From a virus (Duplodnaviria > Caudoviricetes): a stretch of DNA of 64,000 bases. The notes beneath the pieces are model-generated. The model was not told where the DNA came from, did not search any database, and worked only from the letters and a program-made list of their open reading frames with translations. Below, in pieces: positions 52,114 through 58,727 of the stretch. The stretch covers positions 1 through 64,000 of IMG/VR virus record IMGVR_UViG_3300032092_000009. One strand, 5' to 3'. How positions within the stretch are numbered: the stretch's first letter is position 1; each line of letters opens with the position of its first letter. Made by a program: the position numbers and the translations under genes.

Positions 52114-52584
52114 ATGAAAGGACTTCTAGTAAGTCTTTTCCTAATTCTTTCTATCCCCTGTTCTTCTCAAATCAATGTGATGAAGGCAGGGGATGGTTGG
52201 GATTTAAAGGTAGACTCGGCCTTAGCATTAATTGCTCAAACTGATGTCAACGCTTATACTAGAGTAATAGATGTCTGCCAAGTAATAGACTTCTGGATTA
52301 GCCCCTATTCCTCTAATACAATCTCCCAAGATGGTGGAACTATATTTATCGCTACAGGAGACATAAAAACGAATTCACTCAATAACCTAGCTTGTGTTAT
52401 TGTACATGAAAGTCTTCACTTATACTACTTGTTACATCCAGTAGAACAGTCACAGGACGAAGAAGAACTTAAGTGTTATATCTACGAGTTAGACTTTATA
52501 AAAAAACTACCAACCCCAGAGCCTTGGTTACAGGCAAATGCAATTGAACAATTACATAAATTAACTAAAACAAAAACAAAATGA
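52114..52584 (+). CDS. exported zincin-like metalloprotease
   Basis: Signal peptide ending SS-Q; VIVHESLH HExxH motif with downstream EE. Confidence 0.65.
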   Translation: MKGLLVSLFLILSIPCSSQINVMKAGDGWDLKVDSALALIAQTDVNAYTRVIDVCQVIDFWISPYSSNTISQDGGTIFIATGDIKTNSLNNLACVIVHESLHLYYLLHPVEQSQDEEELKCYIYELDFIKKLPTPEPWLQANAIEQLHKLTKTKTK

Positions 52585-54479
52585 ATAAACTATTTAAAGT
52601 AATCATCGGGGTGTTGACATTGTTGGTTGGCAATGTATCAGCACAAAGTTCTGCTACCTCTCCAGGTACAGGTCATTGGGTTGTAATCGACTCAGGTTAT
52701 CAAGTAGCTACAAACACTGTAGGACAGACTGTAGCTCCTCTACACTTCTACAATACCTCTACTTCTGAAAAGATCACAGGTATGCAGTTCCGTGTATTCT
52801 ACGATAAGACAGCTTTCACAGCAGTTGTTCCTTCTCTTAAGATTTCTTCTACTGATCAATACTTGCAGTATGTAGATAGTAACACACAAGGTTTCTTAAC
52901 TGTTACATTGGCTTACACTGGATCTAGCTCAACATTTAACTACTCTAATGGAGCTACATTTGATCTTACCTTCACACACGCAAGCGCAGCTGTATGGAAC
53001 ACATTGGATTCTATTAAGACTCTTAAGGTATCAGGTGTTAAATCATTCGCTAACAAAGCCGCTACTAACTGGGGTAACGATACTACTTTAGTAGTTTACT
53101 CTTATGGTGGTCGCTTCAACCAGAAAGTATTAAGATTTGCTGCTAAGTTTAAAAACGTAACAGGTTCTGACGCTAAGAACTTGTGGGTGTCTTTGGAAAA
53201 GAAAGCTCCTTCAGGATCTTGGACTCAAGTAGAAGCTAAAGCAACTAACTCTAGTGGTGTTGTTGTATTCCGTAAATTCTTGGATACTACTTACTGGGAT
53301 GTACGTATGGTTGTTAAGGGAGATACTATGACCCCTGGTAACGTATTCTCTACTGCAGATGCACAGAAAATTAACCAGTCTATTCTAGGTCAATATGTTG
53401 CTTCAGGATTTGACTACTACACTATGGACGTAAACGGAACTGATGGAACTATTTCTATTGCTGATGTTTACTCTGTATACGGACGTTTGGCAGGTAGATT
53501 CTCTGCATGGCCTAATTCTAAGAAGGATGTAATGTTCTTTACAGTTGCTGAGTACAACTCAATTAATGGATCTGCTACTAACTTAACTTCTACTTACTCT
53601 ACTATTAATAACTTTAACTACACAATTGACGGTAGAGATTCTATCACTTACTACGTAGCTGTTAAAGGTGATGCTAACTCTACAGGATTTAAGATGGCTC
53701 GTTTAACACCTATTAAGATTGTTAACCCAGCTAATGCTAAGCGTTACATCATTGACGAGACTGTAGAATACGACTTCCCTGCAGAAACTATTGAGATCAA
53801 CATGCCTAAAGTAACTGTAGACGAAGGTAACTTGGTTAACGTACCAGTTAAAGTACTGACTAACGGAAAGAACTTAGGTGCACTACAATTAGACTTGCGT
53901 TATGACACTGCTTACTTAGAGTTTAAGAAAGTAGAAAACACTGAGAAGATGATGAAGTGGACTTCTTACTTGAACCCTTCTAATGGAATCATTTCTTGGG
54001 GAGCTGCTGACTTGACTAACGAGAACATGCTTAATGACGGAGAGCAAGTATTCACTCTTCAATTTATCGCTAAGAAGCCACAAGACTCTTGGGCTACTGC
54101 AGCTTTGTGGACAGGTGCTAAATACGTAGGAGACAAAAACTCTAAAGACATGAACATTACCCCTGCTATGGGAGTAATTGAAGTACGTAGAATTAACAAG
54201 GGAGTTGTTTCACTTAATGACTTGAACTCTATTATTACTTTTCCTAACCCTACAGAAGGTCCAGTACAAATACAATTCAAGATCAAAGAAGACAGCGAAG
54301 TAGACGTAGCTATCTCTGATGAGGTGGGAAGACGTGTACAAACGATTTTAAGAGAAAGAATGCCTGCAGGTAAGTACAAGTATAATACAAACCTAGATCG
54401 TCTCCCTAATGGCTTCTATGTACTTTCTGTAACAACTCAAAAAGAAATCTTACACTCCAAAATAATCGTACAAAAATGA
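52581..54479 (+). CDS. exported protein: cohesin-like x2, dockerin-like module, T9SS C-terminal sorting domain
   Basis: Signal peptide ..NVSA-Q; ITGMQFRVFYD and VNVPVKV..LGALQLDLRYD (cohesin-like); DVNGTDGTISIAD; C-terminal FPNPT...D..GR.V...LPNGFYVL...KIIVQK. Confidence 0.8.
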   Translation: MNKLFKVIIGVLTLLVGNVSAQSSATSPGTGHWVVIDSGYQVATNTVGQTVAPLHFYNTSTSEKITGMQFRVFYDKTAFTAVVPSLKISSTDQYLQYVDSNTQGFLTVTLAYTGSSSTFNYSNGATFDLTFTHASAAVWNTLDSIKTLKVSGVKSFANKAATNWGNDTTLVVYSYGGRFNQKVLRFAAKFKNVTGSDAKNLWVSLEKKAPSGSWTQVEAKATNSSGVVVFRKFLDTTYWDVRMVVKGDTMTPGNVFSTADAQKINQSILGQYVASGFDYYTMDVNGTDGTISIADVYSVYGRLAGRFSAWPNSKKDVMFFTVAEYNSINGSATNLTSTYSTINNFNYTIDGRDSITYYVAVKGDANSTGFKMARLTPIKIVNPANAKRYIIDETVEYDFPAETIEINMPKVTVDEGNLVNVPVKVLTNGKNLGALQLDLRYDTAYLEFKKVENTEKMMKWTSYLNPSNGIISWGAADLTNENMLNDGEQVFTLQFIAKKPQDSWATAALWTGAKYVGDKNSKDMNITPAMGVIEVRRINKGVVSLNDLNSIITFPNPTEGPVQIQFKIKEDSEVDVAISDEVGRRVQTILRERMPAGKYKYNTNLDRLPNGFYVLSVTTQKEILHSKIIVQK

Positions 54480-54823
54480 ACATTAAAAAAGCACTTGGTT
54501 TTAGCCAAGCAGAACCAGTAGTAGTAGATCCTAAGAATAGGTTCTATTATATGCTACAACAAATGCAAGCCAATCGTTGGAAGATCACTGCTATCGTATT
54601 AGGTTTGTTCTTCTTTATTATCCTTGGTATTAACTCAGCTGTATTCTTCGGAGTAGAGATTGCGGAGAACTGGAAAGAAATGTTGCTTATTCTTTTTGGA
54701 GCATTCGTAGGTAATTTGAACAAAGTAGTAGACTACTGGTTTAATTCTGAAGATCGAGATAAGATGCTAATACAGAAGGTGGATGAGGAAGATGGTGAAT
54801 CATTGTCAAATAATAATCCATAA
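54476..54823 (+). CDS. 2-TM membrane protein
   Basis: Two TM helices; LFGAF...VVDYWFNS pattern. Confidence 0.65.
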   Translation: MNIKKALGFSQAEPVVVDPKNRFYYMLQQMQANRWKITAIVLGLFFFIILGINSAVFFGVEIAENWKEMLLILFGAFVGNLNKVVDYWFNSEDRDKMLIQKVDEEDGESLSNNNP

Positions 54824-54827
54824 TAAT

Positions 54828-57298: not shown

Positions 57299-58278
57299 GG
57301 TGGTTAGTTATTCTATTCTTTATTGTAAGCCCTCTAAGTGCACAATTTACTTATTCTGGATACTTGTATAATGCAAATGGATCTGGGGCCAACAACGTAG
57401 CTATAAAACTGTATAGAAGAACTAACTCAACTATTACAGGCTTTACTAATCAGCAGAACTACAACGGGCACTCTTATTACCGTTCTACAGGAACTGCATT
57501 TTGGACTACAGCCAAGACTAACTGCTCTAATATGGGAGGGCACTTAGTAACTATTACAACTTCAGGAGAGCAAAGTTTTCTATATAATCTCTGGCCTTCT
57601 GGATGGATAGGACTAACAGATGAAGTAACAGAAGGTACTTGGAGATGGGTTACAGGGGAAAGTTATTCTTATTCTAACTGGAACTCTGGAGAACCTAATA
57701 ATGCAGGTAACGAAGATTATGTTCAATTTGTATCTAATGGTAGGTGGAATGACTTACCTAATAACTACGCACTTCCTTATGTACTAGAGTTTGAGTATTT
57801 AGTAACTACTTCTTCTTGGACACTCTACAAGACTATATATACTAACTCTTCGGGTTACTATTCTATTTCTGAGACTTACGATCCTTCTAAGGAATACTAC
57901 ATTGAGATAGATGCTCCTACCAGAATTCAATCTTATACAACTTCAGACATTCAAGGAGTATCTAATATTATTCTCGGAAGGAGTGTAAGGAATGGTTTGT
58001 CTTTTCATATGTTTGATGTTAATGAAGACGGAGTAATTTCTATAGCAGATAAGTATTATGTAGCTGCGAGGAAAGCTGGTTTATTCTCTAGATGGAGAAC
58101 AGCTCCTGATGTAAGGATCTTTACTACTGCTCAATACAATTCAATTAAAGCAGCAACAACAAACGTAAGAGCAACCTATCCTGGAGTTACTACTCATACT
58201 ACAACTACCTTAACCTCAGGGGGAAGTTTAAACTTATATATAATAGCTCCTGGCTATGCTGGAGCAGTAACCTACTAA
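57295..58278 (+). CDS. exported C-type lectin plus dockerin-like protein
   Basis: Signal peptide ..LSA-Q; GHSYY, W..A...C...GGHLVTI, WIGL.D...EG.W.W, W..GEPNN, WND; DVNEDGVISIAD. Confidence 0.85.
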   Translation: MRWLVILFFIVSPLSAQFTYSGYLYNANGSGANNVAIKLYRRTNSTITGFTNQQNYNGHSYYRSTGTAFWTTAKTNCSNMGGHLVTITTSGEQSFLYNLWPSGWIGLTDEVTEGTWRWVTGESYSYSNWNSGEPNNAGNEDYVQFVSNGRWNDLPNNYALPYVLEFEYLVTTSSWTLYKTIYTNSSGYYSISETYDPSKEYYIEIDAPTRIQSYTTSDIQGVSNIILGRSVRNGLSFHMFDVNEDGVISIADKYYVAARKAGLFSRWRTAPDVRIFTTAQYNSIKAATTNVRATYPGVTTHTTTTLTSGGSLNLYIIAPGYAGAVTY

Positions 58279-58280
58279 CT

Positions 58281-58727
58281 ATGAAAAAACTATTTATACT
58301 TTGCTTTCTAGTCACTATGATGACTTCTCTGAGTGCTCAATGCTATAAAGTTGACACTGTAACATCAATTGCTTCTGTAACAGAAATAGGAGGAAGACCT
58401 ATAATCTTTGGAGCACAAACAACTTTAGAAGAGATTGCAGCCTCAAAGTACCAACTATGTAATGAGGGCAGTCCTATTTCAGGAACAATCAAATCCATTG
58501 CTATGCCTGAAGAACTCTTAAATATCGTAGGGTTACAGTTTCTTAAGAGAGACTATATTGTAATCACTGAGATAAATCTAAATGGAGTAACTGTTCTTGG
58601 AGAGGCTAAAAAGACTGTCTATGTTAATGCTATGTTTGTTTCTGTAGAAGGTATTCCTCATAACAGAAAAGCTTATTCTAAGGCATTGGAGAAGTCTTTC
58701 AAGAATGGATTTGAGAATTTGAAATAG
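58281..58727 (+). CDS. exported hypothetical protein
   Basis: Signal peptide ..SLSA-Q; last gene of the exported-protein module. Confidence 0.65.
   Translation: MKKLFILCFLVTMMTSLSAQCYKVDTVTSIASVTEIGGRPIIFGAQTTLEEIAASKYQLCNEGSPISGTIKSIAMPEELLNIVGLQFLKRDYIVITEINLNGVTVLGEAKKTVYVNAMFVSVEGIPHNRKAYSKALEKSFKNGFENLK

Follow-up and report, generated by a model that had tools for sequence, protein, structure and literature searches.

We analyzed a 64,000-base window, the first 64 kb of the 110,868-base viral record IMGVR_UViG_3300032092_000009 (IMG/VR; estimated 94% complete), which belongs to a freshwater crAss-like phage of Bacteroidota. From position 52114 to position 58727 the window carries a gapless cassette of eight co-oriented open reading frames (ORFs), here called A to H, all on the plus strand, abutting or overlapping and located directly after a holin-like gene and an endolysin gene. 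A preliminary description of this DNA had already recognized a run of abutting or overlapping genes after the lysin, but had counted seven of them rather than eight. The genes, and the parts recognized within their products, are as follows.

52114-52584, plus strand: A, 156-aa secreted protein with a zincin-like HExxH motif (motif only)
52581-54479, plus strand: B, 632-aa type IX secretion system (T9SS) cargo protein, assigned from profiles and conservation
52710-53060: cohesin 1 of B, residues 44-159 (24.5 bits)
53190-53693: beta-sandwich and single Ca-loop module of B, common with G
53793-54182: cohesin 2 of B, residues 405-534 (46.3 bits)
54240-54470: type-A C-terminal sorting domain of B
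54476-54823, plus strand: C, 115 aa, two hydrophobic segments, C-terminal tail acidic and invariant
54828-55151, plus strand: D, about 107 aa if counted from Met16, which is conserved (ORF opening at 54783; 18-sequence alignment)
55132-55839, plus strand: E, 235-aa lipoprotein with a predicted CsgG fold and the lipobox LTLAG-C23
55823-57298, plus strand: F, 491 aa, signal peptide followed by Gln20
55883-56092: small N-terminal domain of F (predicted local distance difference test, pLDDT, 70-84)
56093-56674: disordered linker of F, about 190 residues rich in Thr, Ser, Gly, and Asn
56675-57292: predicted 12-stranded beta-barrel of F, strands at residues 285-490 (pLDDT 45-71)
57295-58278, plus strand: G, 327 aa, signal peptide followed by Gln17
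57502-57783: C-type lectin head of G with EPN and WND motifs, inserted in a beta-sandwich
57787-58275: conserved C-terminal module of G, holding the DVNEDGVISIAD loop at 58015-58050
58281-58727, plus strand: H, 148 aa, signal-peptide-like N-terminus with Gln20

As had been proposed, every product of the cassette appeared to carry a signal peptide, a lipobox, or a membrane anchor. These export signals were read by eye from the sequence instead of being called by a signal-peptide predictor, because a Kyte-Doolittle scan of 19-residue stretches proved too coarse for signal peptides and missed E, F, G, and D. The N-termini of A, B, F, G, and H showed a short basic stretch, a hydrophobic stretch, and a small-residue site followed by glutamine (Q19, Q22, Q20, Q17, and Q20, respectively), E had a lipobox, and C and D had membrane segments. 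The glutamine at position +1, earlier noted for several of the products and now counted in five, was invariant in the alignments of A and B and present in most G sequences, and it fits the 'Q-rule' that describes signal peptidase I substrates of Bacteroidetes (PMC5837995; this and the other papers cited below were available in part, and each is cited for the part available). When A to H were compared with the PHROG families, no structural (virion) family was matched. The location of the block between tail-fiber genes and a terminase gene would suit virion or virion-assembly proteins, an identity that we consider highly improbable, since signal peptides, a lipobox, and a T9SS domain are unfit for cytoplasmic virion assembly, no PHROG structural family was found, and the related block of Flavobacterium phage vB_FspM_immuto (hereafter immuto) lies in a replication region.

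The conservation of the cassette was evaluated from the relatives of B in IMG/VR, which numbered 93 and of which 80 loci were kept (59-98% identity). In tblastn comparisons, all 55 loci with at least 6.5 kb of sequence past B showed the order D-E-F-G-H after it; C was present in 47 of these and missing in 8, and A was found directly upstream in 63 of 69 loci. The most conserved gene was E (81-99% identity in 75 loci), and A and H were the least conserved. Among 50,697 GenBank phage records, homologues were detected only in the four records of immuto, a cultured 160-kb phage that is placed in the genus Immutovirus, another genus than that of the window phage. Its genes run in the order G, B (split into two genes), D, E, F, and H, with identities of 50, 31/25, 45, 43, 28, and 27%, respectively; A and C are absent, and the set sits between nrdA (ribonucleotide reductase)/nucleases and queC/tRNAs, i.e., among replication genes. 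The break in the immuto B comes precisely between the shared module and cohesin 2; the part after it carries a separate signal peptide with glutamine, a cohesin, and a T9SS domain. Two of the immuto genes are named in GenBank as 'cohesin domain-containing' and 'lectin C-type domain-containing'. A third, marine lineage was reached through a distant relative of E (P0130, 36% identical to E): in six of its seven loci the E homologue was followed by a match to the N-terminal domain of F, the seventh ending right after E, and in four of the seven a gene encoding a cohesin and a T9SS C-terminal domain (CTD) lay upstream of the E homologue. In one marine locus (L091), the cargo gene was followed by a gene of the PorV/PorQ family (NF033709, 90.2 bits against a cut-off of 90). 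Judged by these comparisons, A to H are a conserved set that is inherited as a unit and moves between unrelated phages. The synteny in other phages that the preliminary description had proposed to test was therefore borne out, the D-E-F-G-H order holding throughout the 55 loci and the core of the cassette recurring in different genome contexts, namely the immuto replication region and the marine lineage.

Cellular genomes were covered by scanning species-representative genomes with patterns derived from E, an approach that finds close relatives only. Among 232 pattern matches there was one relative, a 16.5-kb contig (L084, RFPL01000028.1) filed in a 'Sphingomonadaceae' metagenome-assembled genome, which carries the phage's tail-fiber gene and the cassette order with an E 92% identical to that of the window. 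Because this sole contig has the phage gene order and is probably mis-binned, no close chromosomal relative was found by the scan, and as far as seen the cassette is restricted to phages. We also observed insertions inside the cassette of some relatives, between C and D or between E and F, with the gene order kept around them (L014:12271-14456, L019:13303-13944, L047:4833-5432, and L061:12264-13427). These consisted of GIY-YIG-like/NUMOD3 and HNH-like genes, probable homing endonucleases, of a DUF2589 protein pair with an 86-aa membrane protein, or of a gene for a 387-aa Ala/Glu-rich repeat protein. The marine locus L091 (4326-11356) encodes in succession a 987-aa protein with cohesin and T9SS CTD, the PorV/PorQ-family protein, a coiled-coil membrane protein, a ferredoxin-like protein, an E-like lipoprotein, an F-like protein that lacks the long linker, and a second CsgG-like paralogue.

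B begins with a signal peptide, read from the sequence as MNKLFKVIIGVLTLLVGNVSA, followed by the invariant Q22. The whole protein scored 59.2 bits against the Cohesin family (PF00963) in two stretches, and the two cohesin-like segments described earlier each exceeded the Pfam cut-off of 24.1 bits (46.3 and 24.5 bits), with the N-terminal 200 residues scanned alone giving a borderline 24.0 bits against the same cut-off. At the extreme C-terminus, residues 554-630/631 of 632 matched Por_Secre_tail (PF18962) at 38.2 bits against a cut-off of 27 (42.6 bits in a genome-wide scan), and TIGR04183 was matched at 34.4 bits against a cut-off of 23. P555, N556, P557, G611, Y613, and K627 were invariant in 13 sequences, confirming at the level of profiles and conservation that the FPNP...GxY...K tail corresponds to the T9SS sorting signal that had been read there. 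No other T9SS type-A sorting domain was matched in the whole phage genome. Together, the profiles identify B as a predicted T9SS type-A cargo protein with two cohesins.

Residues 204-371 of B matched G over its last ~160 residues (34% identity, E value 1.9e-20), and within the 110.9-kb genome this shared module was found only in these two proteins. It is composed of a beta-sandwich part followed by the loop DVNxDGxISIAD, the Asp/Asn positions of which were invariant (D283, N285, and D295 of B in a 13-sequence alignment; D241, N243, and D252 of G in 23 sequences). The preliminary description had called the loop of B, and a module of G, dockerin-like. The DxNxDG loop is indeed present, and in G as well as in B, but membership in Dockerin_1 (PF00404) was not obtained: against a gathering score of 22.9 bits, the C-terminal part of G reached 12.8 or 14.5 bits and a PA14-type relative 17.0 bits, and B gave no match at all. 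Neither B nor G was found to contain the tandem pair of Ca-binding loop-helix segments of type I dockerins; a single DxNxD...D loop is conserved (D283-D295 in B, D241-D252 in G), and the segment before it retains a helix-like part without a loop. Since the module scores below the Dockerin_1 cut-off and has one loop only, it can be called dockerin-like at most. Complex predictions of cohesins 1 and 2 of B with mature G returned scores of 0.01 and 0.00 (mark 0.32), which we take as evidence neither way. Outside the window, a 1562-aa protein gave a weak Dockerin_1 match (G000:C1:89403-89549; 14.9 bits, below the cut-off). A docking module would be of consequence if it sat on a virion protein; the protein has no Pfam family, and we regarded the match as probably due to chance.

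The lectin call for G was corroborated by a match of residues 70-163 to Lectin_C (PF00059; 62.1 bits against a cut-off of 22.6, E value 9.9e-17) and by the EPN and WND motifs, which we take to be the Ca/sugar-site motifs of C-type lectins and which were retained in all lectin-type relatives of G. The relatives of G keep the signal peptide, the first strands, and the C-terminal module, and vary in the inserted head. Among 61 G ORFs, 22 had a Lectin_C head, 22 a 400-aa type without a family, 11 a PA14 head (profile score 25.6 bits), 5 a GEVED head (E value 1.3e-13), and 1 another head. On the tree of B (58 rows), at least 17 changes of head type were required, compared with a least possible number of 4 and a mean of 28.6 after shuffling; near-copies inflate the clustering statistic of the head types, so that the number of changes is the relevant figure. 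Moreover, sister pairs about 1-2% apart in B carried different heads (L064/L044 and L069/L073). By its profile match and these comparisons, G is a C-type lectin whose head is exchangeable among relatives.

The preliminary description also contained a CsgG call for E, a beta-barrel call for F, and a zincin call for A. None of these was supported by a direct Pfam match of the window protein; support came from other analyses. E matched no family of Pfam or NCBIfam directly, and as a single sequence it matched none of the solved chains; only the family profile reached CsgG, with a profile of 40 E-family members finding E. coli CsgG at an E value of 7.7e-6. Among 1.84 billion cluster representatives, 166 relatives of E were found at E <= 0.001. 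In 18 distant or fused relatives that were scanned, the Pfam CsgG family (PF03783) was above threshold in 8 and a caspase-domain fusion was seen in 4, and the distant relative P0264 contains CsgG followed by an outer-membrane protein (OMP) barrel in one protein. The AlphaFold2 model of E (pLDDT 83.7) had CsgG as its best Foldseek match (E value 3.8e-7, template modeling score 0.54), and in VIA-align it aligned with CsgG at Z 14.5 over 174 residues (root-mean-square deviation, rmsd, 5.0). The eight best VIA-align entries were all CsgG (Z 13.2-14.5) and the next entry scored 10.4; beyond CsgG, the model resembled a DUF330 protein, LptE, PelC, and FlgT at Z of about 8-10. The modeled structure thus supports a CsgG fold for E. 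The same model does not support a CsgG-type pore. It contains one long hairpin (residues 134-172) with 11 charged among 37 residues and the tip AVDEDEQVDGLKSK, and the profile alignment ends ahead of the second membrane hairpin of CsgG, where E is ~37 residues shorter. No CsgF, CsgE, or curlin family was matched among A to H in Pfam or NCBIfam. Of the CsgG-like lipoprotein that had been described, the lipobox and the predicted fold remain; a pore is not supported by these predictions.

The barrel call for F fared well. The modeled barrel of 12 strands was most similar to that of the AaaA autotransporter (Z 18.1, rmsd 2.9, 209 residues aligned) in a comparison with 12-stranded barrels whose scores went down to 15.2 over ten, with further matches to KdgM (Z 17.6), NanC (17.1), NalP (17.0), and FapF (15.6). 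The match to chain F of 6h3i, which we take to be PorV, reached a Z of only 11.6. F is accordingly modeled as ending in a 12-stranded outer-membrane barrel. A type Va autotransporter would have its passenger joined through a helix inside the barrel; in the model of F the segment ahead of strand 1 (TAKAAGKAKAEVAKP) is unstructured, at low confidence. Within the signal-peptide-coding 5' end of F, we observed a GC-rich hairpin of 11 pairs with a T-rich run after it (55861-55886), which may reflect attenuation or chance.

For the remaining proteins the profiles were less informative. In A, Q19, H98, E99, H102, E117, E118, C121, and E125 were invariant in 16 sequences (HESxH and three downstream Glu residues). 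A had no match in Pfam or PHROGs, it reached TIGR04267 of NCBIfam at an E value of 0.033 only, which is below threshold, its profile found nothing meaningful among the solved chains, and its language-model (Atlas) leads were DUF6647 and eCIS_core at 0.93. The motif behind the zincin call is therefore well conserved, but no profile placed A in such a family at threshold. C is probably an inner-membrane protein, judging by its hydrophobic segments. D combines an acidic N-terminus with a single membrane segment and a tail rich in Pro, Glu, and Lys, and its C-terminal ...DPW is invariant; the end of its gene overlaps the start of E by 20 bases. H had no match in Pfam, PHROGs, or NCBIfam, its profile matched none of the solved chains, and it is unrelated to E (profile-profile probability 2.8%); its Atlas leads, which were weak, were the LptE-like lipoprotein families Lipoprotein_16 (0.88) and LptE (0.85).

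The surroundings of the cassette contain the following features.

up to 50041, plus strand: tail-fiber genes, followed by two small genes
41494-45354: 1286-aa tail-fiber protein with matches to many tail-fiber PHROGs and a C-terminal Peptidase_S74 intramolecular chaperone domain (3.6e-09)
45347-50041: second fiber gene, highly variable, with a homologue in 13 of 80 loci only
50994-51023, plus strand: strong terminator-like hairpin (13-pair stem and T run) that closes the tail-fiber unit (consensus match only)
51247-51495, plus strand: holin-like 82-aa membrane protein, with hydrophobic segments and a charged C-terminus by reading
51526-52113, plus strand: endolysin (phrog_3000, 1.4e-38; phrog_33083 'endolysin', 3.2e-13), its stop codon abutting the start of A
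58737-58753, plus strand: weak terminator-like hairpin directly past H (consensus match only)
61381-63390: large terminase (phrog_6681, 5.8e-96), resembling the terminases of Cellulophaga phages and crAss-type phages

The phage was recognized as crAss-like because a muzzle-protein homologue is present downstream of the window (PF25731, 4.7e-37; a 1687-aa protein at G000:C1:76964-82027 and L098:12964-18027). Past H, the interval 58728-59475 begins with 354 bases that lack any ORF of at least 50 aa and contain two small hairpins, and a lone minus-strand gene for a 97-aa protein lies at 59082-59375, after which plus-strand genes run to the terminase. A megablast search of 50000-60000 against GenBank phages gave no match. 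The stretch was present nearly whole in 20 runs from 12 studies, mostly labeled freshwater. One RNA library yielded short contigs with 99-100% identity on B, D/E, E/F, F, and G/H, which is a weak hint of transcription only, because DNA carry-over is possible; the RNA runs X23 and X24 yielded no contigs placed on the stretch. A sigma-70 promoter scan found 26 sites with 29.5 expected and is uninformative; Bacteroidota promoters fall outside its scope.

The holin-like gene, the endolysin gene, and the cassette probably form one transcription unit, and the neighborhood raises the question of whether the products serve lysis. In such a lysis-linked module, the products would act with holin and endolysin to breach or remodel the Bacteroidota outer membrane and would substitute for spanins; the inner-membrane protein D and the outer-membrane lipoprotein E would form a trans-periplasmic pair, with F as the outer-membrane partner. 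The block comes directly after holin and endolysin with no terminator-like site between endolysin and A, a holin homologue adjoins the cassette in 46 of 80 loci, and in 39 of 56 loci the 2.6 kb upstream of B include an endolysin homologue. In two PHROG-scanned loci without the upstream endolysin homologue (L061 and L077), H is directly followed by a holin-like gene and by another endolysin (phrog_181; 2.2e-66 and 4.2e-64), and a third locus (L066) also has a holin homologue after H; on the other flank, this sub-lineage has GroEL, phosphoesterase, and GtrB-like genes. The lysis-gene neighborhood is thus kept in two arrangements within the lineage, but not in immuto, where the cassette lies among replication genes, ~6.5 kb from an annotated muramidase-type gene. 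Many spanin gene pairs overlap, as the genes of D and E do here, and no spanin family was matched in PHROGs by the 12 proteins encoded at 50116-58727. A 235-aa CsgG-fold protein is, however, unlike a short o-spanin, the low-complexity Pro/Glu/Lys tail of D has no coiled coil evident by reading, and a cohesin-bearing T9SS cargo and a head-swapping lectin have no evident role in membrane fusion. Parts of the set are also dispensable, since 8 of 55 loci lack C and immuto lacks A. We consider a lysis module unlikely, but it is the foremost rival of the reading given next. The earlier statement that these are not virion or lysis proteins stands for its virion part, by the PHROG results and the immuto context, and is too firm as regards lysis, since within this lineage the block adjoins lysis genes in either order.

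The reading to which we would give about an even chance is that of an accessory cassette whose products are exported through the Sec, lipoprotein, and T9SS routes of the host and come together in the outer envelope during late infection. Once exported by Sec, E would follow the lipoprotein route and F the beta-barrel assembly machinery (BAM), and the two would form an outer-membrane platform resembling the lipoprotein-barrel pairs LptE-LptD and PelC-PelB, and D would span the periplasm from the inner membrane as a tether. B would be exported by the host T9SS as a scaffold, either staying on the surface or being released, and G would attach through the C-terminal module that it has in common with B. 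The infected cell would then bear, in its outer envelope, a strain-specific glycan-binding head, which would also be present on the debris; its most likely purpose would be to bind a variable glycan of the host surface around lysis. The benefit may be receptor masking, which would spare progeny from loss on debris or on cells already infected, or the holding of neighboring host cells close by. A bolder version, which is possible though on balance doubtful, pictures a portable cellulosome-like display system in which a T9SS-anchored cohesin scaffold, a docking module with interchangeable heads, a base of CsgG-fold ring and barrel, and an inner-membrane tether re-dress the cell with a strain-specific lectin coat around lysis, protecting or spreading the progeny; the docking module would then possibly leave with the scaffold through the T9SS translocon. 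Of the earlier interpretation as a whole, the conserved unit, the exported products, the T9SS cargo with cohesins, the lectin, and the non-virion nature were upheld, and cohesin-module binding, surface display of G, and the proposed roles remain conjectural, as does a CsgG-type pore.

Several observations weigh against an assembly in the outer envelope. G has no T9SS domain, and E offers it no export pore by prediction, amphipathic membrane hairpins being absent from the model; with no recognized outer-membrane route, G, A, H, and the N-terminal part of F may remain periplasmic. The shared module is outside Dockerin_1, its pairing with the cohesins is a conjecture, and the loop is degenerate in the B-like protein of immuto. 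The model of the F barrel is of moderate confidence (pLDDT 45-71), and co-transcription of the cassette with the lysis genes leaves little time for a surface role before lysis. Some of these points fit a periplasmic or outer-membrane complex that is never surface-exposed, in which the heads (lectin, PA14, or GEVED) would bind envelope glycans from the inner side, namely peptidoglycan or the lipid-linked intermediates of O-antigen or capsule, or which would occupy the T9SS or gliding machinery, e.g., blocking receptor secretion or motility. The T9SS sorting domain is confined to B, as the single match genome-wide, the model of E shows no pore features, and the PorV/PorQ-family protein of the marine relative suggests direct dealings with parts of the T9SS. 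C-type lectin, PA14, and GEVED domains are nevertheless typical of extracellular adhesins, and conservation of the sorting domain in all three lineages indicates that the export of B matters, which leaves this alternative distinctly unlikely. A very unlikely option, along the lines proposed for the variable T9SS cargo of 'Cryophage', is that the products are secreted helpers acting outside the cell on behalf of host or phage with no assembled complex, e.g., in nutrient capture or in adhesion to particles or algae. The heads of G do vary among relatives, as do the T9SS type-A genes, including one with PA14, among variants of 'Cryophage' (PMC7468147), but no enzyme domain was found apart from the small HExxH protein A, and the membrane-bound C, D, E, and F are strictly co-inherited with B and G, which speaks for an assembly and against free proteins.

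Phage accessory proteins that are exported and act at the surface of the host are known mostly as single genes, e.g., exclusion lipoproteins and O-antigen modifiers. The cassette would be a multi-part module, apparently reaching from the inner membrane to the outer envelope and relying on a phylum-specific secretion system, and it is common to at least three phage lineages and frequent in freshwater metagenomes. In how freely it is exchanged, the head is comparable to a receptor-binding protein, which points to binding of variable host glycans. A direct test is possible, since immuto and Flavobacterium sp. LMO8 are a cultured phage-host pair that has the cassette; the cassette may also supply natural parts for surface display in Bacteroidota.

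Literature searches on phages with cohesin, T9SS, or lectin found no description of the cassette, supplements and the paper describing immuto aside, and none of the papers mentioning immuto concerned the cassette block, judged by title and the start of the abstract. In the literature found, the cassette is thus undescribed, with T9SS cargo, CsgG/CsgF clusters, and Q-rule proteins of phages already known singly. The only published report of phage-encoded T9SS cargo that we found concerns 'Cryophage' (Bellas et al. 2020, PMC7468147), in which three variable phage genes carry T9SS type-A domains, one of them with PA14. Both are Bacteroidota phages with T9SS type-A cargo and with genes, PA14 included, that vary among variants. 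In Cryophage, however, every cargo protein carries a sorting domain itself and is either a single enzyme or a PA14 protein, whereas the window phage has one two-cohesin cargo in a fixed eight-gene set, which also encodes a CsgG-fold lipoprotein, a barrel, and membrane proteins, and a variable lectin without a sorting domain. Exported proteins of unknown function whose signal peptides expose an N-terminal glutamine were reported for phages of Porphyromonas gingivalis and were read as an adaptation to Bacteroidota export and as outer-membrane modification (Matrishin et al. 2023, PMC10367356). The +1 glutamine is shared with our cassette; the terms 'T9SS', 'type IX', and 'lectin' are absent from the main text of that paper, and its available part describes no such multi-gene cassette.

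Partial curli clusters with CsgG and CsgF were described in pelagimyophages, with function unknown and aggregation ('sibling capture') proposed (Zaragoza-Solas et al. 2020, PMC7029224), and a partial curli cluster is likewise reported for a marine methylophage (PMC9004378). These resemble the present case in that a phage encodes a CsgG-family outer-membrane lipoprotein within a small operon. They differ in having recognizable CsgG and CsgF and in belonging to phages of Proteobacteria, whereas E has no direct Pfam CsgG match, no CsgF, CsgE, or CsgA partner, and no predicted membrane hairpins, and its gene set instead brings a 12-stranded barrel, a T9SS cargo, and a lectin. A further likeness is to the LptE-LptD and PelC-PelB pairs: the model of E matches LptE, PelC, and FlgT after CsgG (Z 8.3-9.8), the next gene encodes a predicted barrel, and the distant relative P0264 fuses a CsgG domain with an OMP barrel. 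The difference lies in the 12 strands of F, as in an autotransporter, KdgM/NanC, or FapF, compared with 16 to 26. Cohesin-dockerin assemblies form cellulosomes and also occur as non-cellulosomal modules in many phyla. The cassette shares with them the two Pfam-level cohesins of B, a DxNxDG...D Ca-type loop module on a second protein, and the layout of a scaffold with a swappable subunit; it differs in that the putative partner module is not Dockerin_1 and has one loop, behind a beta-sandwich, instead of two, and in that the anchoring would use the T9SS rather than sortase or SLH.

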